A program made the translations under genes and the position numbers. A DNA stretch of 64,000 nt from Candidatus Amesbacteria bacterium RIFCSPLOWO2_01_FULL_48_25 (GTDB lineage: Bacteria; Patescibacteriota; Microgenomatia; CAZETR01; Amesbacteraceae): NCBI GenBank assembly GCA_001773695.1, contig MEXN01000005.1, positions 139,316-203,315 of the forward strand, in the 5' to 3' direction. Shown in pieces: positions 2,971-34,658 of the stretch. The notes beneath the pieces are model-generated. The model was given only the letters and a program-made list of their open reading frames with translations, was not told the DNA's origin and searched no databases. Within the stretch, counting starts at the first letter, position 1. Every line of letters starts with the position of its first letter.

Positions 2971-4029
2971 ATGACTATCCAACAACTATTGAAATATGTA
3001 ATTGAAAAGAAGGCGTCGGATTTACACTTGCTGGTGGGATCGCCGCCAATTGTGCGGATAGACGGAGTGTTGGCACCGGCGGATGGGGAGAAACCGCTTA
3101 ACGTATCCGAGGTGGAGCAACTGTTGCATGGAGTAATGTCGGTGGAGCAGAAGCAGATATTATCTGTAAACAAGGAATTGGATTTTTCGTTTACCTTGGG
3201 GGAACACGCCAGGTTTAGGGCGAATGTGTATCATCAGAAAAACACTGTGGCTGGGAGTTTCCGGTTTATTCCGGTGGAGGTGGCGGGTATCGATTCCTTA
3301 GGTTTACCGGCGATTATTCGCAATTTGACCCGGCTGAAGCAGGGATTTGTGCTGGTGACCGGGCCGACTGGTCAGGGAAAGTCGACGACGCTGGCTGCCA
3401 TGATTGACGAGATAAATAAGACCAGGGCGGTGCATGTGGTAACGATTGAGGACCCGATCGAGTATGTATACACTCCGATTAAGTCCATTGTCTCCCAACG
3501 AGAGATTCACGGAGACACGCATTCTTGGGAGGTGGCGCTGCGATCAGTGCTGAGGGAAGACCCGGATGTGGTACTGATCGGCGAGATGCGCGATTTTGAG
3601 ACGATCGCGGCGGCTTTGACTATTGCGGAGACGGGACACTTGGTATTGGCTACACTGCACACTAATTCGGCGGCACAGACGATCGATCGGATTGTAGACG
3701 TATTCCCGGAAAACCAGCAGCCGCAAATTAGGCAGCAGTTGTCGGGAAGCCTAGAGGCGGTATTTTCTCAGAGGCTCGTGCCTTTGATTGCCGGGGGGAG
3801 GACGGTGGCTTCCGAGGTCATGCTGGGGACGGCGGCGGTTCGGACGGCAATTCGGGATGGGCGGACGCATACGATTGATAACGTGATAATGACATCGGCG
3901 GAATATGGAATGTTTACCCTGGAGGCGTCTTTGGCGCAGTTGGTAAAGTCCGGAAAAATTTCTGAGGATGTGGCGCTGTCTTATTCGTTTAGGCCGGCTG
4001 ATCTGACGCGGTTTCTTAAAGGAGGATAG
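2971..4029 (+). CDS. pilT: Twitching motility / pilus retraction ATPase PilT
   Basis: GPTGQGKSTT Walker A and HLVLATLHTNSAAQTIDRI; about 350 aa, typical of PilT. Start placed at the MTIQQLL Met. Confidence 0.85.
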   Translation: MTIQQLLKYVIEKKASDLHLLVGSPPIVRIDGVLAPADGEKPLNVSEVEQLLHGVMSVEQKQILSVNKELDFSFTLGEHARFRANVYHQKNTVAGSFRFIPVEVAGIDSLGLPAIIRNLTRLKQGFVLVTGPTGQGKSTTLAAMIDEINKTRAVHVVTIEDPIEYVYTPIKSIVSQREIHGDTHSWEVALRSVLREDPDVVLIGEMRDFETIAAALTIAETGHLVLATLHTNSAAQTIDRIVDVFPENQQPQIRQQLSGSLEAVFSQRLVPLIAGGRTVASEVMLGTAAVRTAIRDGRTHTIDNVIMTSAEYGMFTLEASLAQLVKSGKISEDVALSYSFRPADLTRFLKGG

Positions 4030-4038
4030 GGGTTTGAC

Positions 4039-5241
4039 ATGAGGTATAAGTACCGGGCGAGAAATGAACTGGGGCAACCGGTAGCGGGAGTGGTGGAGGC
4101 GATAACGGCGTTGTCCGCGGCGGGGGTGTTGCGGGAGCAAAAGCTGACGCCGATTTCTATTAATGAGACCGGAGGAGGAGTGAATTTGGGTAATGTGTTT
4201 TCGATGTTTGGGAAAGTGGGGACGGCCGAGCTGGCGACGTTTACCCGGCAGCTGTCGACGATGATTACCGCAGGGTTGCCTCTAACCGATGCACTGAATT
4301 TATTGAAAGCCCAGTCCGGAAGAGCGTTTTCGCCCATTATCGGGGCGGTAATGGCGGATGTGCAGGGCGGGGTGTCACTTTCTGGGGCTTTGGGCAAACA
4401 CCCGCAGGTTTTTTCCAAAGTTTATATCTCTTTGGTTCGGGCGGGGGAGGCGGCAGGGGTGATGGAGACGATTATGAACAGGCTGGCGGATACTTTGGAA
4501 AAAGGGCGGGAGTTCCGATCTAAAGTGATTGGGGCAATGATTTATCCGATAATAATCCTGATCGGTATGGTGGCCGTTGTGATTATCATGGTGGTGGTAG
4601 TTATCCCGAAGCTGACCGCGTTGTATGAGGACTTTGATGCCGAGTTACCGGCGGCAACTCAGGTACTGATAGCGGTATCGGATTTTGCTATAAATTACTG
4701 GTGGCTGGCTATTGCAATGGGGGTGGGAGCGGTATTTGGGATCGTTGCTTTTTTACGAACTCCAAATGGCCGGGAGATTAAAGACAGACTGGTAGTCAAG
4801 ATTCCAGTATGGGGGGAACTGGTGCAAAAAGTGATGCTGACCGAGGTGACGCGGACTTTGGGATTATTGGTTTCGGCGGGAGTGTCCATCGTCGAGGCGC
4901 TAACGATCGTTTCCGAGGCGGCGGGAAACGTGATTGTAGAACGGGATTTGCGACGGATTTCCCGGCAGGTGGAGAAGGGATTTCCGGTGTCGATTTCTTT
5001 TTCGGAAAGCATGGTGTTTCCGGCAATTGTCGGGCAGATGATAGCCGTGGGTGAGGAAACCGGAAAAATGGACGAGGTACTCACCAAAATGTCTACTTAT
5101 TTCGAGTCCGAATCTGAACAACGGGTTAAAGGCTTGACAACGGCAATTGAGCCAATAATAATAATGGTATTAGCAGTAGGGGTAGGATTTTTGATGTACG
5201 CTGTAGTTATGCCACTTTATAGTATTACGAATAGTTTGTAG
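4039..5241 (+). CDS. pilC: Type IV pilus platform protein PilC (GspF family)
   Basis: 400 aa, two GspF repeats, polytopic membrane protein downstream of pilB/pilT. AGGAGG ribosome-binding site upstream. Confidence 0.85.
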   Translation: MRYKYRARNELGQPVAGVVEAITALSAAGVLREQKLTPISINETGGGVNLGNVFSMFGKVGTAELATFTRQLSTMITAGLPLTDALNLLKAQSGRAFSPIIGAVMADVQGGVSLSGALGKHPQVFSKVYISLVRAGEAAGVMETIMNRLADTLEKGREFRSKVIGAMIYPIIILIGMVAVVIIMVVVVIPKLTALYEDFDAELPAATQVLIAVSDFAINYWWLAIAMGVGAVFGIVAFLRTPNGREIKDRLVVKIPVWGELVQKVMLTEVTRTLGLLVSAGVSIVEALTIVSEAAGNVIVERDLRRISRQVEKGFPVSISFSESMVFPAIVGQMIAVGEETGKMDEVLTKMSTYFESESEQRVKGLTTAIEPIIIMVLAVGVGFLMYAVVMPLYSITNSL

Positions 5242-27999: not shown

Positions 28000-28003
28000 G
28001 GGT

Positions 28004-28825
28004 TCATGATAGCATGGATTTCAAGGTGTCGATGTCTTGTTTTCTGGGGCCGTTTCCATCCCCGGGAACCTCAAGAATAAACGGGATAGTTTTTAGTCTT
28101 GCGTCACTCGCAAATTTTGCCAGGCTGACTTCGCCTATTTTTCCAAGACCAATGTTTTCGTGACGATCAATTTTGGATCCAAACTCGGTTTTAGAATCGT
28201 TGAGATGAATGACCGAGAGCCGTTTTAGACCTATGATTCGATCGAATTTTTCGAGAACAGTGTCGAGAGTGTAACCGGCTGCGAAACAGTGTTGGGTATC
28301 CAGGCAGACACCGATTTTGGATTTATCCCCTACTCTACTGATTATTTGAGCTAAATCCTCAAATTTTTCCCCAATAGCGCCACCTTGGCCAGCTGCGTTT
28401 TCTAAAATGAGTCTGACACCCTTGGGGCTGCTATCCAGAGTAAAGTTAATGGCGGCAACAACTTGGTCGATGGTTTTTTCCAAGCCTTCTCCCATGTGGC
28501 TGCCGATGTGGAAAATAGTTCCCACGGCATTTATTTCTCCAGCTAGTTGTTGATAGAAGATGAGAGAATTGATACTGGCTTTTAGGTACGACTTGCTTTT
28601 TGAGGCTAGATTGACCAGATAGACTCCATGGAAGAAATGAGGACCGATTCCTGATTCGTCCTTTTTATCCAGGTATTTTTGAATGAGTTTGGGATCGATG
28701 TTTTTGAATTGGAGTGAGCGGGGGGAGGAGGCGAAAGTCATAAGACAGTTGCCACCAATTTCGGCTATTCTATCTATGCACTTGTCAAAGCTACCGGCTA
28801 TAGAGACGTGACCACCTAAATGCAT
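28004..28825 (-). CDS. nfo: Endonuclease IV (AP endonuclease family 2); start reassigned to the Met whose A is shared with the CCA of the upstream tRNA-Val
   Basis: MHLGGHVSIAG... matches the Nfo start (E. coli MKYIGAHVSAAGG), plus HGVYLVNLAS, LENAAGQG, GVCLDTQHCFAAGY and HLNDSK metal-binding motifs. The ORF-track start (GTG 28834) would lie inside the tRNA. Confidence 0.85.
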   Translation of the reverse strand: MHLGGHVSIAGSFDKCIDRIAEIGGNCLMTFASSPRSLQFKNIDPKLIQKYLDKKDESGIGPHFFHGVYLVNLASKSKSYLKASINSLIFYQQLAGEINAVGTIFHIGSHMGEGLEKTIDQVVAAINFTLDSSPKGVRLILENAAGQGGAIGEKFEDLAQIISRVGDKSKIGVCLDTQHCFAAGYTLDTVLEKFDRIIGLKRLSVIHLNDSKTEFGSKIDRHENIGLGKIGEVSLAKFASDARLKTIPFILEVPGDGNGPRKQDIDTLKSMLS

Positions 28826-28899
28826 GGTGGGCACTGGAGGCTTTGCACCCCCGACCCTTGCAATGTCAATGCAATGCTCTACTCCTGAGCTAAGTGCCC
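28825..28899 (-). tRNA. tRNA-Val(GAC), CCA encoded; atypical T-loop (TGCAAAG)
   Basis: Hand-folded as GGGCACT-TA-GCTC-AGGAGTA-GAGC-A-TTGCA-TTGACAT-TGCAA-GGGTC-GGGGG-TGCAAAG-CCTCC-AGTGCCC-A-CCA. Perfect acceptor, D and anticodon stems; U33 and A37 present. Confidence 0.7.
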
Positions 28900-28923
28900 T
28901 ATATGGGCTATTTTAGCAGAAGA

Positions 28924-29127
28924 TTAGATCAGATTCCTCCCATCAGGCTTCCACTCGTCTTTCCTCACGATTCCAAATATGAAACAGATAGGATTAAGCT
29001 GGGCAAGTAGTTTTTGGAGCGGGTTGAGGGTGGGTTTTTCTAACTGTGGGGCACGCTCGGTGGGAGTTGCATCCGCGGTCATGCCCAACCTGGTCCGCTC
29101 TTCTGATGTAATTACTATTTCGCACAT
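28924..29127 (-). CDS. Small hypothetical protein (67 aa) with strong SD
   Basis: AGGAGGTGA 6 nt upstream of ATG. No recognisable family. Confidence 0.4.
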   Translation of the reverse strand: MCEIVITSEERTRLGMTADATPTERAPQLEKPTLNPLQKLLAQLNPICFIFGIVRKDEWKPDGRNLI

Positions 29128-29174
29128 TTTTATTGATCACCTCCTTTTGTCGGGTGCCAATCTGGTTCAAATAA

Positions 29175-29378
29175 TTATTGATTGGCGTGAATGGACAAAA
29201 CCTGTTCATGGTCAGTACGACCATTGTTGGCTTGTGCCTGTGCTTTGAGCTCCTCTTCCCTGGCGACTCCGACACCAAGAATGGCTTCTTTGGATAACTT
29301 TTCGGCTCCATTTGCAGGAGCTACGAGATAAGTGGATCCTTTGTAGGTAACTTTTTCTAATTTGGTCATGGTTTTCAC
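29175..29378 (-). CDS. Small hypothetical protein (67 aa) with strong SD
   Basis: GGAGGTGAAAACC-ATG. No recognisable family. Confidence 0.45.
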   Translation of the reverse strand: MKTMTKLEKVTYKGSTYLVAPANGAEKLSKEAILGVGVAREEELKAQAQANNGRTDHEQVLSIHANQ

Positions 29379-29397
29379 CTCCTTTCGGACAACTAAA

Positions 29398-29430
29398 AAA
29401 CCCCGCTGGTTGCGGGGTTTTGGGTTTAAT
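29398..29430. terminator. Bidirectional terminator-like hairpin (cccc-gc...gc-gggg flanked by A/T runs); a related imperfect hairpin lies at about 29452-29475
   Basis: aaaaccccgctggttgcggggttttgggttt; on the minus strand the stem is followed by tttttt. Confidence 0.45.
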
Positions 29431-29561
29431 AATATTTTGGTTAGTTAAAGATTACCCAAAGCTCCCCGCAATTGCGAGGTAAAAAAGAAAAAAGTAAACG
29501 CTTGGGTCGGATACATTGGGGTGATTATACTCTTATTGGGGGAGTTTGTGTCAAGACTTGC

Positions 29562-29612
29562 CCGCCACGCTTGCGCGATATGTTGCGTGATTATGGCGTG
29601 ATATACTTGAGA
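29562..29612. repeat. Left copy of a ~50-bp direct repeat flanking the fic gene
   Basis: ccacgcttgcgcgatatgttgcgtgattatggcgtgat... versus cgacgcctgcgcgatttattgcgtgattattgcgtgat... downstream of fic, about 45/54 identical. Contains internal GCGTGAT x2. Confidence 0.6.
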
Positions 29613-29617
29613 GATAA

Positions 29618-30670
29618 GTGTTTACACCCAGATACAGAATTACGGATAAGGTGGCCAAGTGGCTATCGGATATAGCAGAGATTAGGGCTATGGTGGAGTC
29701 GTCCCGGCTGCTGCCAGCCCGGGAAGCTTTTTTGCGCCGGACGGCCATAGTCAAAATGGCGCATACCTCCACTTCGATTGAGGGAAATGAACTGGATGAG
29801 TACCAGGTTGGGGAAGTGGCTCAGGGGAATAAAGTGAAGGCAGATGTAGATCAGGTGCGGGAGGTCCAGAATTATTTGGAGGCATTGGGGAAGATTGACC
29901 GGATTTCTGGAGAAAAAAGGACTTTTGGAACGGCAGAAGTATTGGAAATACATAAAACTGTGATTTCGGGACTAGTTGACTTACAGAAAACTGGAAGATT
30001 TAGATCCGGACCGGTGTATATAGTTAATACTTTGCCCAAAGGGGGAGAGGAGCTGGCCTACACCCCCCCCACTGCCTTGCATGTGGAAGTATTGGTAGAT
30101 GAACTTTTGGATTGGATCAGAAATCCGGGGGAGATTCATCCGGTAATTCGAGCGGGTTTGTTTCACTATCAATTTGAGAGTATTCACCCATTTACGGATG
30201 GTAACGGGCGAACCGGTCGGCTAATGACACTTTTGCATTTGTATCAGTCTGGTTGGGATTTCAAAAAAGTATTAGTGTTGGAGGATTTTTATAACCGGGA
30301 TAGACGTAGGTATTACCAGGCATTGCAAACGGGGGAAACTTATGTCGCTCGTCAGGGGGCGGACTTAACAGATTGGCTGGAGTATTTTGTGGGGGGGTTT
30401 TGGGACGAGGTGTTGCGGGTGAAAGAGCAAATACTAACTTTGAAAGTGGTGGGAGAGAAGGGCTTGACCCAACAGATATTAGATGAGGACGAATTGAGAA
30501 TCGTGGATTTTGTGGTGACGGTAGGGAGAGTTACCTCTTCTGATGCCGAGGATATTTTGCGGGTTCCCAAACGGACGGCGCAGTTTAAACTGAAGCGATT
30601 GGAGGATATTGGTGTACTTTCTAAGCAAGGGGCTGGTCCGGCGACGTATTATGTTATATCTAAAGTGTGA
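29618..30670 (+). CDS. Fic family protein (class II, N-terminal inhibitory SxxxEG helix) with C-terminal winged-helix-like domain
   Basis: Fic motif HPFTDGNGRTGRLMTLLHL. N-terminal TSTSIEGNELD matches the auto-inhibitory [S/T]xxxE[G/N] motif. Confidence 0.85.
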   Translation: MFTPRYRITDKVAKWLSDIAEIRAMVESSRLLPAREAFLRRTAIVKMAHTSTSIEGNELDEYQVGEVAQGNKVKADVDQVREVQNYLEALGKIDRISGEKRTFGTAEVLEIHKTVISGLVDLQKTGRFRSGPVYIVNTLPKGGEELAYTPPTALHVEVLVDELLDWIRNPGEIHPVIRAGLFHYQFESIHPFTDGNGRTGRLMTLLHLYQSGWDFKKVLVLEDFYNRDRRRYYQALQTGETYVARQGADLTDWLEYFVGGFWDEVLRVKEQILTLKVVGEKGLTQQILDEDELRIVDFVVTVGRVTSSDAEDILRVPKRTAQFKLKRLEDIGVLSKQGAGPATYYVISKV

Positions 30671-30675
30671 GGAAC

Positions 30676-30726
30676 GACGCCTGCGCGATTTATTGCGTGA
30701 TTATTGCGTGATTTTAAGAAGAGATA
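30676..30726. repeat. Right copy of the direct repeat flanking fic
   Basis: See the left copy; located immediately after the fic stop codon. Confidence 0.6.
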
Positions 30727-31350
30727 TTAACCAGTAGATGTTACCATATACCGCTCGGAGCTGAGCATGTACTTGGTGCCGGATTTGCCGACCTGACCCC
30801 AGTAGTAGGAGCGCTTTTGAGCTCTGGAATTGGTGGTGGCCAGCCAGTGGCGGGAATCCTCGACCTTGCGCCTGAGGGTGACGATTAGGGCCTTGAGCTG
30901 GTGGAAGAACGTAACGTGATAGACGCCGGGATTGGCCGGAGCCTGGGAGGCAGCAATTTCGACTTCATGAGCTAGACCGCCTGCGGATTTGACCAGGGAC
31001 TTGATTTCGGACTGGATAGCCTGGATGGTCTGGCGGATTTGAGTTTCTTGCCTCTGGCGGTAGGATTGTTCCTCTGCCTTGATTTGCTGGAGTCGCATCT
31101 GGAAGCGGGCTTCGGCTTTCTTTTCGCCTTGGTTTTCTGCTTGCTGAAGTTGGGCCACTGAGATTTGTTCGTTAGGCTGGAGCGTGCCTGAGGCGGGAGT
31201 AAGACCAATGGCCTCGGGAAGGTCGCTGATGACGATCTTTTTGACCTGGATTTTGGCCTCGGATTTGAGATCTGAGCCTAAATCGCGTAGAGCTTCCAGG
31301 AAGTTGACCGGAGCTGGTCTCTTGGACTTTACACTATGGGATACTTGCAT
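30727..31350 (-). CDS. Hypothetical coiled-coil protein
   Basis: 207-aa ORF, Gln/Glu-rich central coiled coil, no motif. Confidence 0.35.
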   Translation of the reverse strand: MQVSHSVKSKRPAPVNFLEALRDLGSDLKSEAKIQVKKIVISDLPEAIGLTPASGTLQPNEQISVAQLQQAENQGEKKAEARFQMRLQQIKAEEQSYRQRQETQIRQTIQAIQSEIKSLVKSAGGLAHEVEIAASQAPANPGVYHVTFFHQLKALIVTLRRKVEDSRHWLATTNSRAQKRSYYWGQVGKSGTKYMLSSERYMVTSTG

Positions 31351-31359
31351 AAACTGATG

Positions 31360-32064
31360 TTATACCAAAGAGGCTAAAAAATCAAGAGTTTTTTTGCGAT
31401 CTGGGAGCTGTTCTCCGTTACGTACCGTTTCAAGGATAAACTCGATTTCCAAATCTATTTTGGCCTGGGAGGCCGTTTGGGCCCGGAGGTCTTCGGTGGT
31501 CATTTTTTTGGATTGGAGGTAGCGGGGAAGGTCCAGAGATAGCTGGGCCAGATTTTCGGCTAGGTGCCCTAACCTGTGGTTGGATTCTTCCTCGATTAGG
31601 AGATGGGGAATTTGGAGTGTAGAGTGTTGGCGCAGGTAATCGACGATGGCGGTTAGTTTTTGATTAGCGTTTTTAATTTCTAGGTTTTTTATGGCCGATT
31701 TGTAGTCCGGGGGCAGTTTGACCTGGGGGGCCTCGCAGGTGGTAGCTATGAACTCCCAATCTTCGTTGGGCTGGCCCTTGGTGATTTTGATGTGGGGGTA
31801 GAGGACCGGCTTGAGTTTGTGGGCGTTTGCTATGGCCTGGTAGGCCGTCGGGAGGAGGGATTGGAGGGCGGCAGTTAAGAGCTTGTTTGTGTCCAGTTTT
31901 GGTTCAACAATATCGCGCGGAGCCTTGCCTTTTCTGAACCCTGAAATTTCTGTCTCTTCTACTGCCTTGACAATTTCTTTTTCGCGGGCGGCTTGGATAT
32001 CCGACCAAGGAATAGAAAAAATCAATTCGATGGTGCCGTTGTCCAGACGGGTTACTTGATTCAT
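31360..32064 (-). CDS. tig: Trigger factor, short form (N-terminal ribosome-binding domain plus C-terminal arm, no PPIase domain)
   Basis: Signature ISGFRKGKAPRDIVE (trigger-factor GFRxGxxP motif) within the N-terminal domain. Confidence 0.65.
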   Translation of the reverse strand: MNQVTRLDNGTIELIFSIPWSDIQAAREKEIVKAVEETEISGFRKGKAPRDIVEPKLDTNKLLTAALQSLLPTAYQAIANAHKLKPVLYPHIKITKGQPNEDWEFIATTCEAPQVKLPPDYKSAIKNLEIKNANQKLTAIVDYLRQHSTLQIPHLLIEEESNHRLGHLAENLAQLSLDLPRYLQSKKMTTEDLRAQTASQAKIDLEIEFILETVRNGEQLPDRKKTLDFLASLV

Positions 32065-33157: not shown

Positions 33158-33469
33158 TTGGGAAAAACCCACGATTACTTCTTGACTTTCGTCTTTTGTT
33201 CGGTTACAAATGAGTTGATGGAGACCGTTAATGAAAGAATTGTGGTGGGGGTGGAGTTTGCGCTGGGGAAAGTAACGCCGCGGTGGTTTGGGTGGAGAGG
33301 GAGAGAGTATCAAGTAAAAAGAGTGCCGATGGTTTTTGAAAGAAAGGACGGAGGGAGGAGATACATCTGTTTTAACGTGACTACTGACGGCATGATAGCT
33401 GAACTTTCTTTAGACACGCAGAATTTTCAGTTTTCAATTACCAATTTCCAACCTATAACCCCCTCTTAA
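33158..33469 (+). CDS. Hypothetical protein
   Basis: 103-aa ORF. Its stop codon lies inside the 23-bp palindrome. Confidence 0.3.
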   Translation: MGKTHDYFLTFVFCSVTNELMETVNERIVVGVEFALGKVTPRWFGWRGREYQVKRVPMVFERKDGGRRYICFNVTTDGMIAELSLDTQNFQFSITNFQPITPS

Positions 33470-33488: not shown

Positions 33489-34658
33489 ATGAAAACGATA
33501 TTACATTTGGATATGAATAGCTACTTCGCGACGGCGGAGCAGCAGGCGAATCCTATTTACCGGGGTAGGCCGGTGGGAATAATTAAGGCTGAAGGCCGCG
33601 GGTGTGTGATTGCCGCTTCTGTCGAGGCCAAAAAGTTTGGAGTGAGAACAGGGTGTACGACCTGGGAAGCGAAGAAAATGTGCCCTTGGATTATTTTTGT
33701 GCCGTCGGATATGGATAAATATTTTGCATTGACGAACCGGATGATAAAAATTTTGGCTGATTACTCCCCCACTTTGGAAGCGTTCTCGATAGATGAATGT
33801 TTTATAGATGTGACGGAGACGCAAAAATTTTTTGGCGGCGGGATGTATCAAATGGCACTGGAGATAAAATCCCGGGTGAGAGAGGAGTTGGGAGAATGGA
33901 TGAAGTGTTCGATCGGGGTCTCATTTACCAAATTATTGGCCAAACTGGCCTCCGAAATGAACAAGCCGGATGGATTGACCTTTTTGACACCGGATAACTA
34001 TTTGGATGAGACGAAATGTGTAGCGGTATCGGAGGTGTGCGGAATAGGATATTCAAGAACAAAATACCTAAACTCTCGAGGGGCTTATACACTTGGGCAG
34101 GCCCGGAAATTGGACTTGCCCCGAGAGATTTGGGAGTTGGTTTGGCTGCGAAGTAATGATGAACTGACGACGATTGATGATTTGGAGCCGGCGAAGTCGG
34201 TGTCCCGAACATACACTACGTTTCAAGCCACAAGCCACAAATCCCAAGTCACAAAGTTAATTAGAAATTTGGTAGAGGAGGCGGCAGCGAAGCTCCGAGA
34301 GATGGGGATGGCGGGGAGGACGTTTTGCCTATCGCTGGATTCTTTCTGGGCCAGGAAGACCGTCGAAGCTCCGACAAGCGATCCGCTAGTTATTTTTGAT
34401 TTGTTAAATAGGGAGTATGAGAAAAATCCGATAGTGAATATAAGGCAAGCGGGAGTGTGGATTAGTAACTTAATGTTTAATACTCAATGTTTAATGTTTA
34501 ATAACAGGCGGCAACTACTTGATGCGACAGATAAGGTTAATCAAAAATTTGGCTTGTTTACGCTGTATCCGGCGACACTACTGGGTACCGAATTAGTTCG
34601 GCCCGAGGTGACGGGGTATTTAGGGGATAAATACTATCGGTTTGCAGGTGATCGATGA
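33489..34658 (+). CDS. dinB: DNA polymerase IV (Y-family translesion polymerase)
   Basis: MKTILHLDMNSYFATAEQ..., SIDECFIDVT catalytic region, little-finger domain. Confidence 0.85.
   Translation: MKTILHLDMNSYFATAEQQANPIYRGRPVGIIKAEGRGCVIAASVEAKKFGVRTGCTTWEAKKMCPWIIFVPSDMDKYFALTNRMIKILADYSPTLEAFSIDECFIDVTETQKFFGGGMYQMALEIKSRVREELGEWMKCSIGVSFTKLLAKLASEMNKPDGLTFLTPDNYLDETKCVAVSEVCGIGYSRTKYLNSRGAYTLGQARKLDLPREIWELVWLRSNDELTTIDDLEPAKSVSRTYTTFQATSHKSQVTKLIRNLVEEAAAKLREMGMAGRTFCLSLDSFWARKTVEAPTSDPLVIFDLLNREYEKNPIVNIRQAGVWISNLMFNTQCLMFNNRRQLLDATDKVNQKFGLFTLYPATLLGTELVRPEVTGYLGDKYYRFAGDR

Follow-up and report, generated by a model that had tools for sequence, protein, structure and literature searches.

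A class II Fic-winged-helix gene with tandem octamer arrays at both ends, a putative self-regulatory module of Microgenomates

The stretch of DNA analysed here (hereafter the window) comprises 64 kb of contig MEXN01000005.1 of Candidatus Amesbacteria bacterium RIFCSPLOWO2_01_FULL_48_25 and contains a fic gene that is bracketed by two copies of an imperfect direct repeat. A preliminary description of the window had placed these repeats at 29562-29612 and 30676-30726, with about 45 of 54 bases identical and tandem GCGTGAT half-sites in each, and had taken them for the possible boundaries of a small mobile cassette or, as a fallback, for paired operator sites controlling fic. The repeats exist and are built of tandem units, but the limits and the identity were slightly off, i.e. 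the repeat search gives 29567-29616 versus 30677-30726 with 40 of 50 bases identical (80 %), and each copy holds three octamers of the form [T/G]GCG[C/T]GAT rather than two half-sites. All octamers lie on the fic strand, spaced by 12 and then 11 bp. The features of the fic unit, with positions in the window, are:

29567-29616, + strand: upstream repeat copy (U array), from the repeat search and an above-chance pattern count
29572-29579, 29584-29591 and 29595-29602, + strand: octamers of the U array, TGCGCGAT, TGCGTGAT and GGCGTGAT, respectively
29599-29607, + strand: predicted extended -10 element TGATATACT, from sequence reading and conservation in orthologues, 10 nt before the GTG
29618-30670, + strand: fic, 350 aa, GTG start, class II Fic, from the open reading frame (ORF), a Pfam match and homologues
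29768-29785, + strand: inhibitory motif STSIEG (S51-T-S-I-E55-G56), which fits (S/T)xxxE(G/N) and lies N-terminal to the Fic core
30185-30220, + strand: catalytic motif HPFTDGNGRTGR, residues 190-201, of the form HxFx(D/E)GNGRxxR
30485-30658, + strand: predicted C-terminal winged helix, from AlphaFold2 (AF2) secondary structure, weak helix-turn-helix (HTH) matches and co-variation with the octamer class
30677-30726, + strand: downstream repeat copy (D array), from the repeat search and an above-chance pattern count
30682-30689, 30694-30701 and 30705-30712, + strand: octamers of the D array, TGCGCGAT, TGCGTGAT and TGCGTGAT, respectively

The 31-nt triple pattern occurs twice in the 64 kb, against 0.00 occurrences expected from 100 shuffles. 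The octamer TGCGYGAT has six matches in the window, five of them inside the U and D arrays, and a relaxed array search of the same 64 kb gave nothing convincing beyond these two. Both arrays consist of tandem asymmetric octamers without dyad symmetry, and the D array takes up the 56 bp that separate the stop codon of fic from that of a convergent DUF5660 gene.

Judged by its motifs, the encoded protein is a class II Fic, since the catalytic HPFTDGNGRTGR is accompanied on the same chain by the cis inhibitory S51xxxE55G56, as the preliminary description had recognized, and a role as an AMPylase is predicted. The match to the Pfam family Fic (PF02661) has an E value of 4.7e-20 and 72.7 bits versus a cut-off of 24, that to Fic_N (E=2.6e-5) lies slightly below its cut-off, and S51-T-S-I-E55-G56 is invariant across 29 homologues. 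No small antitoxin gene was found upstream of fic on its strand in the window. Public gene calls begin fic at the internal Met25 (326 aa). However, residues 1-24 are conserved in homologues, with M1, F2 and P4 at 90 % or more, and therefore the GTG at 29618 is the real start, to which the annotation should be corrected.

The C-terminal region gave weak matches to HTH_20, SoFic-like_C, TrmB and MarR_2, and the AF2 model (predicted local distance difference test score, pLDDT, 86) contains a canonical winged helix-turn-helix (wHTH) at the C-terminus, with helices at residues 290-302, 307-314 and 318-330, the last being the recognition helix, and a beta-hairpin wing at 334-347. P317 precedes the recognition helix, and the wing loop Q338-T343 contains G340-P341. 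Full-length matches of sequence and fold were found to 4rgl, CccR (7xux), CbFic2 (8cil) and SoFic (3eqx and 3zcn), with 352-372 columns aligned by Foldseek to the structures other than 4rgl, and the phmmer matches of the protein extend to residue 344. The NCBIfam SoFic model NF046030 aligned over residues 26-348 with 88.9 bits versus an equivalog cut-off of 550. By sequence, the window protein is thus a Fic of SoFic-like architecture that belongs to a different subfamily from SoFic. In one relative, Ca. Amesbacteria GW2011_GWB1_47_19 (L012, around 4001-5017), the Fic protein reads YPFTDGNGR, i.e. the catalytic His is replaced by Tyr, and has an internal deletion; it retains the wHTH, and its gene retains both octamer arrays, so that it may be a repressor-only derivative.

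Conservation of the arrays was assessed in an alignment-based sample of orthologues with one genome per species, i.e. 79 loci with 45-77 % identity from Ames-, Gottesman-, Davies- and Woesebacteria, WWE3 and other Microgenomates (single loci are cited by L numbers). The best octamer triple with 12/11 spacing was scored per locus out of a maximum of 24 and counted from 17 upwards, the 99th percentile of the background being 15/24 in random 170-nt windows of the same loci. Such a triple lies upstream of the fic start in 74 of 78 loci (window included) and within 130 nt of the fic stop in 60 of 78; class-aware scoring found the downstream array, again within 130 nt of the stop, in 60 of 77. Surplus arrays are rare in the approximately 9-kb loci around fic (78 loci). 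The arrays flank fic orthologues spanning 45-82 % protein identity in unrelated genomic contexts, and in nearly every locus the coding strand carries both of them. Within one locus, the U and D arrays resemble each other more closely than do arrays taken from different loci (0.816 versus 0.766), a value reached in none of 2000 permutations.

The position of the D array is tied to the end of fic. Its first octamer shares bases with the final two codons and the stop (…TTGCGCGA-TAA) in 13 loci, and in 12 further loci the array begins 0-2 nt past the stop, which makes 25 loci tied to the stop overall. Moreover, it is kept beside fic despite genes inserted before the gene of an RNA recognition motif (RRM) protein in L036, L037, L059, L063, L082 and L084. 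A role as operator of the next gene was rejected, as the array is present independently of that gene's strand (31/49 with the next gene on the same strand versus 15/26 on the opposite strand), and so was a substitution for an intrinsic terminator, a hairpin with T-run being found in 32 of 60 loci with the array versus 4 of 17 without it.

Upstream, the array runs into the predicted fic promoter. The extended -10 TGATATACT is partly made of the 3' end of the third octamer. Among orthologues, the third octamer abuts or overlaps TG[A/G]TATAAT, and the ATG follows 6-9 nt further on in 40 of 63 loci, 26 of which have a distance of exactly 6 nt; in the nearest relatives (L206-L208), TGATATACT itself stands 6-7 nt before the ATG. 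A -10 box at 6-9 nt from the ATG implies leaderless transcripts, and the 10 nt before the GTG of the window therefore imply a near-leaderless 5' untranslated region (UTR). The U array would cover approximately -45 to -10 of this promoter, i.e. lie within the RNA polymerase footprint, which we interpret as the position of an operator. In L058 and L204 the U array is inverted, with its spacing to the -10 box retained. A scan for consensus promoters and terminators did not flag the fic promoter, and the number of sites it returned was no higher than in shuffled sequence.

Several loci depart from this layout. Small, unrelated genes, including those of a GIY-YIG nuclease, a LuxR-like protein and an 80-aa protein, lie between the fic stop and the 3' array in L018, L049, L076, L079, L102, L203 and L206, the order in L049 being array-fic-array-gene-array, and the 3' end of fic may be an insertion hot spot. 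At the other end, around 290 nt separate the array and -10 box from the fic ATG in L113 (215-531), and in L008 (3842-3982) an insert of around 100 nt that can form a hairpin lies between a degenerate and an intact copy of the U array. A distant Fic-wHTH gene with 27 % identity (L093, reverse strand, around 300-356) carries a CTAATATCTTCT-like repeat three times just before its start, which suggests that each Fic-wHTH subfamily has its own operator repeats.

The link between the arrays and the Fic protein comes from co-variation among 124 non-redundant fic genes with complete 3' ends. Three octamer classes exist, and both arrays of one locus are almost always of the same class. Two or more TTCGYGAT units accompany all nine genes with a Thr before the recognition helix (context xTKR[S/A]AQ, not [P/A]KRTAQ) versus only two of the 115 others (Fisher p = 4e-12); these two exceptions have a Ser at this position and mixed arrays, and TTCGCGAT units are found only with Thr or Ser before the recognition helix. 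Likewise, TGCGCAAGA-type units occur in 8/8 genes with a Thr-Thr wing, i.e. G-x-T-T in place of G-x-G-P, versus 0/116 others (Fisher p = 1e-10). The change lies in the 5' half of the site for the TTCGYGAT class and in the 3' half for the TGCGCAAGA-type class. In a neighbour-joining tree built without the wHTH, which is a crude one, each variant class appears at about three places. Winged helices read the major groove with the N-terminus of the recognition helix, while the wing reads the adjacent groove or the backbone. The pattern of residues and octamers is as would be expected from direct readout of the octamers by the wHTH of Fic itself.

The arrays are also largely specific to fic. A metagenome scan for perfect triples listed at least 124 arrays in at least 120 stretches, and among the matches listed 84 of 124 abut fic, 74 of them immediately 5' and 10 immediately 3'. 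Likewise, the 64 kb of the window contain only two arrays. Most of the remaining listed arrays are contig-end cases with the fic start visible or accompany fic remnants, in some (L203, L102) a small gene separates the array from fic, and a few are unrelated GC-rich sequences (L109, L168, L174, L188, L196). Decay of fic is frequent: in L141 and L149 only about the last 12 codons of fic remain after an array, L090 joins its first 11 codons to an hsdS-like gene from a type I restriction-modification system, fic has an in-frame stop in L011, and it is frameshifted in L035. In addition, perfect solo triples lie in two phage-like contigs, i.e. L105 (4132-4162, from Rifle, beside a terminase gene) and L201 (3737-3767, minus strand), and no fic was found within 1.15 kb of either.

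Three characterized proteins share the fold of the window Fic. CccR of Yersinia pseudotuberculosis represses its own promoter through its HTH, with sites over the -35 and -10 elements, and its enzyme and repressor activities, the former directed at FtsZ, are separable (PMC9755527). Like the window Fic, CccR (PDB 7XUX) is of class II, with a cis inhibitory helix, a C-terminal HTH and a fold match over the full length, at approximately 23 % sequence identity. In contrast to the three 8-bp direct repeats of the window, spaced by 12 and 11 bp, its operator consists of two 10-bp inverted repeats 26 bp apart that are read by a dimer, and no 3' operator copy has been reported; moreover, CccR is an effector secreted by the type VI secretion system, while nothing suggests secretion of the window Fic. 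The SoFic dimer of Shewanella oneidensis binds the 100 bp that precede the start codon of its own gene; the enzyme is glutamate-gated and AMPylates EF-Tu (bioRxiv 10.64898/2026.07.09.737422). SoFic (PDB 3EQX/3ZCN) has the same architecture as the window Fic, which scores 89 versus a cut-off of 550 bits with the SoFic model; its operator sequence is undefined, a two-ended arrangement is not described, and its promoter region includes a 300-bp leader, whereas the fic mRNA of the window is predicted to be leaderless. In CbFic2 of Coxiella burnetii (PDB 8CIL), a Fic-wHTH protein with a full-length fold match, DNA binding drives dimerization and stimulates both AMPylation and de-AMPylation (PMC10628234). 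Its DNA binding is without known sequence specificity and its targets are host histones, while the sites of the window are highly specific and confined to the flanks of the gene. By analogy, CbFic2 offers a model in which the arrays might also gate enzyme activity.

We consider it probable that the 1.16-kb unit, i.e. array with extended -10, fic and second array, is a self-contained and vertically inherited self-regulatory module that belongs to a subfamily of class II Fic-wHTH proteins in Microgenomates. The fallback reading of the preliminary description, paired operator sites controlling fic, is supported and made more precise, as the U copy is built into the promoter and both copies co-vary with residues of the wHTH predicted to contact DNA. 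In such a module, the C-terminal winged helix would bind each [T/G]GCG[C/T]GAT octamer, with the start of the recognition helix reading the 5' half and the wing the 3' half, and three head-to-tail sites around one helical turn apart would place the bound proteins on one face of the DNA. As the U array spans the RNA polymerase footprint of a predicted extended -10 promoter without -35 element and with (near-)leaderless mRNA, its occupancy would shut off fic, i.e. the array would be the autorepression operator of a potentially toxic AMPylase, as its position, conservation and co-variation suggest. We infer both that Fic is the binder and that binding represses, and the same applies to the function of the 3' array and to the target of the enzyme.

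The array at the stop codon would be a second operator for the same protein. The phage lambda repressor CI acts through OR and OL, two three-operator arrays around the repressor gene, and DNA looping between them tightens autoregulation. By analogy, our preferred guess for the 3' array, a tentative one, is that Fic dimers, being symmetric, connect U with D and close a loop of approximately 1.1 kb around the gene: as direct repeats that adjoin on a single duplex cannot accommodate both winged helices of such a dimer, the partner helices would reach the second array. The lambda sites are mirror-image palindromes of 17 bp, around 2.4 kb apart and read by HTH dimers, whereas the window has asymmetric direct repeats of octamers 1.1 kb apart, and a loop of this length is too long to constrain the helical phase of U versus D. 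The 3' array might just as well provide decoy or titration sites or a roadblock, and it may also be a DNA scaffold that gates enzyme activity. It is tempting to speculate, although we regard it as rather improbable, that the locus forms a closed, self-referential switch in which Fic dimers bridge the arrays and loop the gene, while the DNA-bound state, as in CbFic2, sets AMPylation versus de-AMPylation. If so, the locus would be both the operator and the sole scaffold controlling the enzyme, i.e. a molecule-counting or gene-dosage sensor in an ultra-small cell.

Several observations weigh against the self-regulatory module. Both CccR and SoFic depend on dimers and the sites of CccR are inverted repeats, so that direct repeats require another binding geometry. 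Perfect arrays persist beside fic pseudogenes and remnants (L011, L035, L090, L141, L149) and in the phage-like L105 and L201, and these orphan arrays may reflect a binder that acts in trans or another copy of fic elsewhere in the genome concerned. Approximately 22 % of the loci, among them the close relatives L007 and L008, lack the D array, which is thus not essential. The Fisher p-values are uncorrected for phylogeny, and the number of independent switches, around two to three per class, is uncertain. Furthermore, the Thr-type genes L107 and L165 each have one class-A and one class-B array, where specificity may be relaxed rather than switched, and the predicted fic promoter draws only on consensus and conservation.

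The orphan arrays also bear on an alternative in which the arrays are operators of a different, trans-encoded regulator and Fic is merely its regulated target. Asymmetric head-to-tail sites around one helical turn apart are read by the winged-helix domains of OmpR/PhoB-type proteins and of plasmid iteron-binding proteins, and the 11-12 bp repeats of the window are more typical of OmpR/PhoB-type monomer arrays than of the inverted repeats of CccR; the window Fic itself has neither a receiver domain nor a Rep function, its winged helix being fused to a Fic enzyme. We nevertheless regard such a regulator as unlikely, since the arrays are almost exclusive to fic, which would leave it with a one-gene regulon, no regulator gene is conserved with fic across the contexts, homologous Fic-wHTH proteins bind their own promoters, and the octamer class goes with residues of Fic's own wHTH, at the recognition helix N-cap as well as in the wing. 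Rather than a partner of U, the D array might be a neutral duplicate maintained by gene conversion, or an operator or promoter element of the following gene, with only the U array being functional. The D array is the one that is missing from around a fifth of the loci, as given above, it is less perfect, and it contributes few of the listed metagenome triples (10, as compared with 74 at the 5' end); its place in Daviesbacteria is immediately upstream of the RRM gene promoter, and it precedes the small-ORF-dinB unit in L020 and L017 and uvrA in L079. Three perfect octamers would not, however, persist neutrally over such divergence, and where the wHTH switches class, the D array switches with it. 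The gene that it borders in the window is convergent, with the 3' end towards the array, the presence of the array elsewhere is independent of the next gene's strand, it stays by fic where genes were inserted before the RRM gene, and its start is tied to the stop codon (-10 or 0 to +2) in the 25 loci mentioned, all of which makes this alternative quite unlikely as well. Finally, the repeats might be 5' and 3' UTR sites of an RNA-binding factor, considering that nearly every locus has both arrays on its coding strand and that the D array would be transcribed within the 3' UTR. We give this hardly any credence: an RNA role of the U array is excluded by its position upstream of the -10 box and hence outside the fic transcript, and by its inversion with promoter spacing kept in L058 and L204, while the 11-12 bp periodicity suits duplex DNA and no Rfam match was found at the arrays.

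As to the mobile cassette of the preliminary description, the arrays would be att-like recombination sites or insertion scars bounding an excisable or capturable fic. The direct repeats do bracket exactly one gene, the unit occurs in differing neighbourhoods across lineages, other genes can lie between fic and the D array (L018, L076, L079, L102, L203, and L049 with its third array), solo arrays and deletion remnants of fic exist, and two perfect arrays sit in phage-like contigs. On the other hand, the position of the unit is conserved within clades. Relatives with 67-82 % identical Fic keep the order thrS/nfo, tRNA-Val(GAC), U array, fic, DUF5660, tig, ppi, ChsH2 and dinB, the Amesbacteria-like clade keeps thrS/nfo, tRNA-Val, fic and DUF5660, and in Daviesbacteria a membrane protein gene, fic and the RRM protein gene form the conserved context. 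Concerning the presence or absence of the segment in syntenic relatives, fic is at the same place in L007, L008, L012, L203 and L206-L208, and no empty site was seen among the relatives examined in a search that was non-exhaustive. The nfo-DUF5660 interval of the window holds no integrase or recombinase, only fic and two orphan small ORFs, and no integrase, transposase or tyrosine recombinase was found in the flanks examined of either the window or the relatives. Features of an integron-type cassette were equally missing, i.e. there is no attC-like palindrome at the array and no IntI in the flanks examined. The two copies are only 80 % alike, yet their octamers are conserved over 45-82 % protein identity; the U copy merges with the -10 box, whose distance to the ATG is fixed, the arrays co-vary with the wHTH, and they lack dyad or attC-like structure. 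The GC content is 0.43-0.53 throughout, without a compositional break, and horizontal transfer thus finds no support in composition. A recent insertion is therefore largely refuted, a mobile cassette in any form is very unlikely, and the repeats around fic should not be annotated as mobile-element boundaries. Separately, the GC skew of the + strand between 25500 and 35000 of the window is +0.0 to +0.3 regardless of gene strand.

Between the tRNA gene and the U array lie further features that the preliminary description had listed:

28825-28899, - strand: tRNA-Val(GAC)
28924-29127, - strand: small ORF, preceded by AGGAGGTGA
29175-29370, - strand: small ORF (sORF_B), preceded by AGGAGGTGA, with ATG at 29370 and 64 aa, as called in L001
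29397-29421 and 29464-29479: CCCCGC/GCGGGG hairpins

The tRNA-Val is indeed next to the segment, and it stays beside fic in relatives with varying orientation (L007 3861-3933, - strand; L008 3722-3796, + strand; L012 3874-3948, + strand). Integrases usually target the 3' side of tRNA genes, and fic lies 5', not 3', of the minus-strand tRNA-Val. The repeat search found no repeat of the tRNA-Val end at the far boundary, only an inverted match of 73 %, and a role of the tRNA as att site was rejected, given its missing direct repeat and the location of fic on its 5' side. In L007, L012 and L207 the tRNA is 12-25 nt from the U array. In relatives, the tRNA-Val abuts the fic operator. The lineage-specific insert is therefore not fic but the 0.67-kb segment that carries the small ORFs, the only such piece and absent from relatives.

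Both small ORFs do stand behind the strong Shine-Dalgarno (SD) sequence that had been noted, but of the two ORFs described as 67 aa long, sORF_B more likely has 64 aa. Among 5.8 billion proteins they gave only self matches of 100 %, all named Candidatus Amesbacteria bacterium RIFCSPHIGHO2_01_FULL_48_32, and no Pfam or NCBIfam family matched. Phage or mobile genes were rejected as an explanation for them, as there are no phage or family matches and only these self matches. The two related hairpins are likewise present, and the consensus scan flagged the one at 29397-29421 on the minus strand. They form a two-hairpin non-coding element (around 29385-29520) between sORF_B and the fic operator, which is approximately 75-80 % conserved in L203 (around 700-830), where it follows the displaced 3' array beside DUF5660. 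On the minus strand, the anti-SD stretch CUUUUUUACCUC is able to base-pair with GGAGGUGAAAA, the SD sequence of sORF_B, followed by a terminator-like hairpin (z = -2.6), and a putative promoter that could drive the element reads TTGACA (29554-29549), 19 nt, TATAAT (29529-29524). The element may be an attenuator, an SD-sequestering leader or a bidirectional terminator module. An Rfam scan of 28000-31500 returned the tRNA only, plus a sub-threshold Phe_leader match on the hairpin element.

Two further neighbours recur. In Daviesbacteria, the gene after fic encodes an RRM-type RNA-binding protein (L030, L038, L041, L043, L044, L055 and others) and has a conserved long leader, approximately 60-200 nt past the fic stop, in which AATTCACCTC can pair with the SD sequence GGAGGTGAATT. 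A small ORF of 75-103 aa just upstream of dinB forms a recurring two-gene unit, found in the window (33158-33469 and 33489-34658), L008 (7403-8955), L020, L202 and L206. In L008, a TGCGCGAT pair lies upstream of this unit, while the window has no array there and instead only a TTGACT-17-TACAAT promoter. A DNA-repair regulon, as arrays near dinB (L008, L020, L017) or uvrA (L079) might indicate, is unsupported in the window, and such cases are rare.

Fic-wHTH proteins have been shown to be both enzyme and transcription factor only recently, i.e. CccR in 2022 and SoFic in 2026. To our knowledge, no recognition code is known for them. The fic gene of the window would represent a type of Fic-wHTH autoregulator with direct-repeat operator arrays at both gene ends and a specificity code that appears readable: the family offers a defined 8-bp site together with natural specificity variants pointing to the residues that read each half. 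The second operator array at the stop codon is an unreported layout. The value of the system therefore lies in a testable recognition code and an unexplained 3' array rather than in a new class of element. For the uncultured Microgenomates of the Candidate Phyla Radiation, the fic module belongs to the small number of cis-regulatory units that lend themselves to confident reading, and it brings evidence of an extended -10, leaderless type of promoter.

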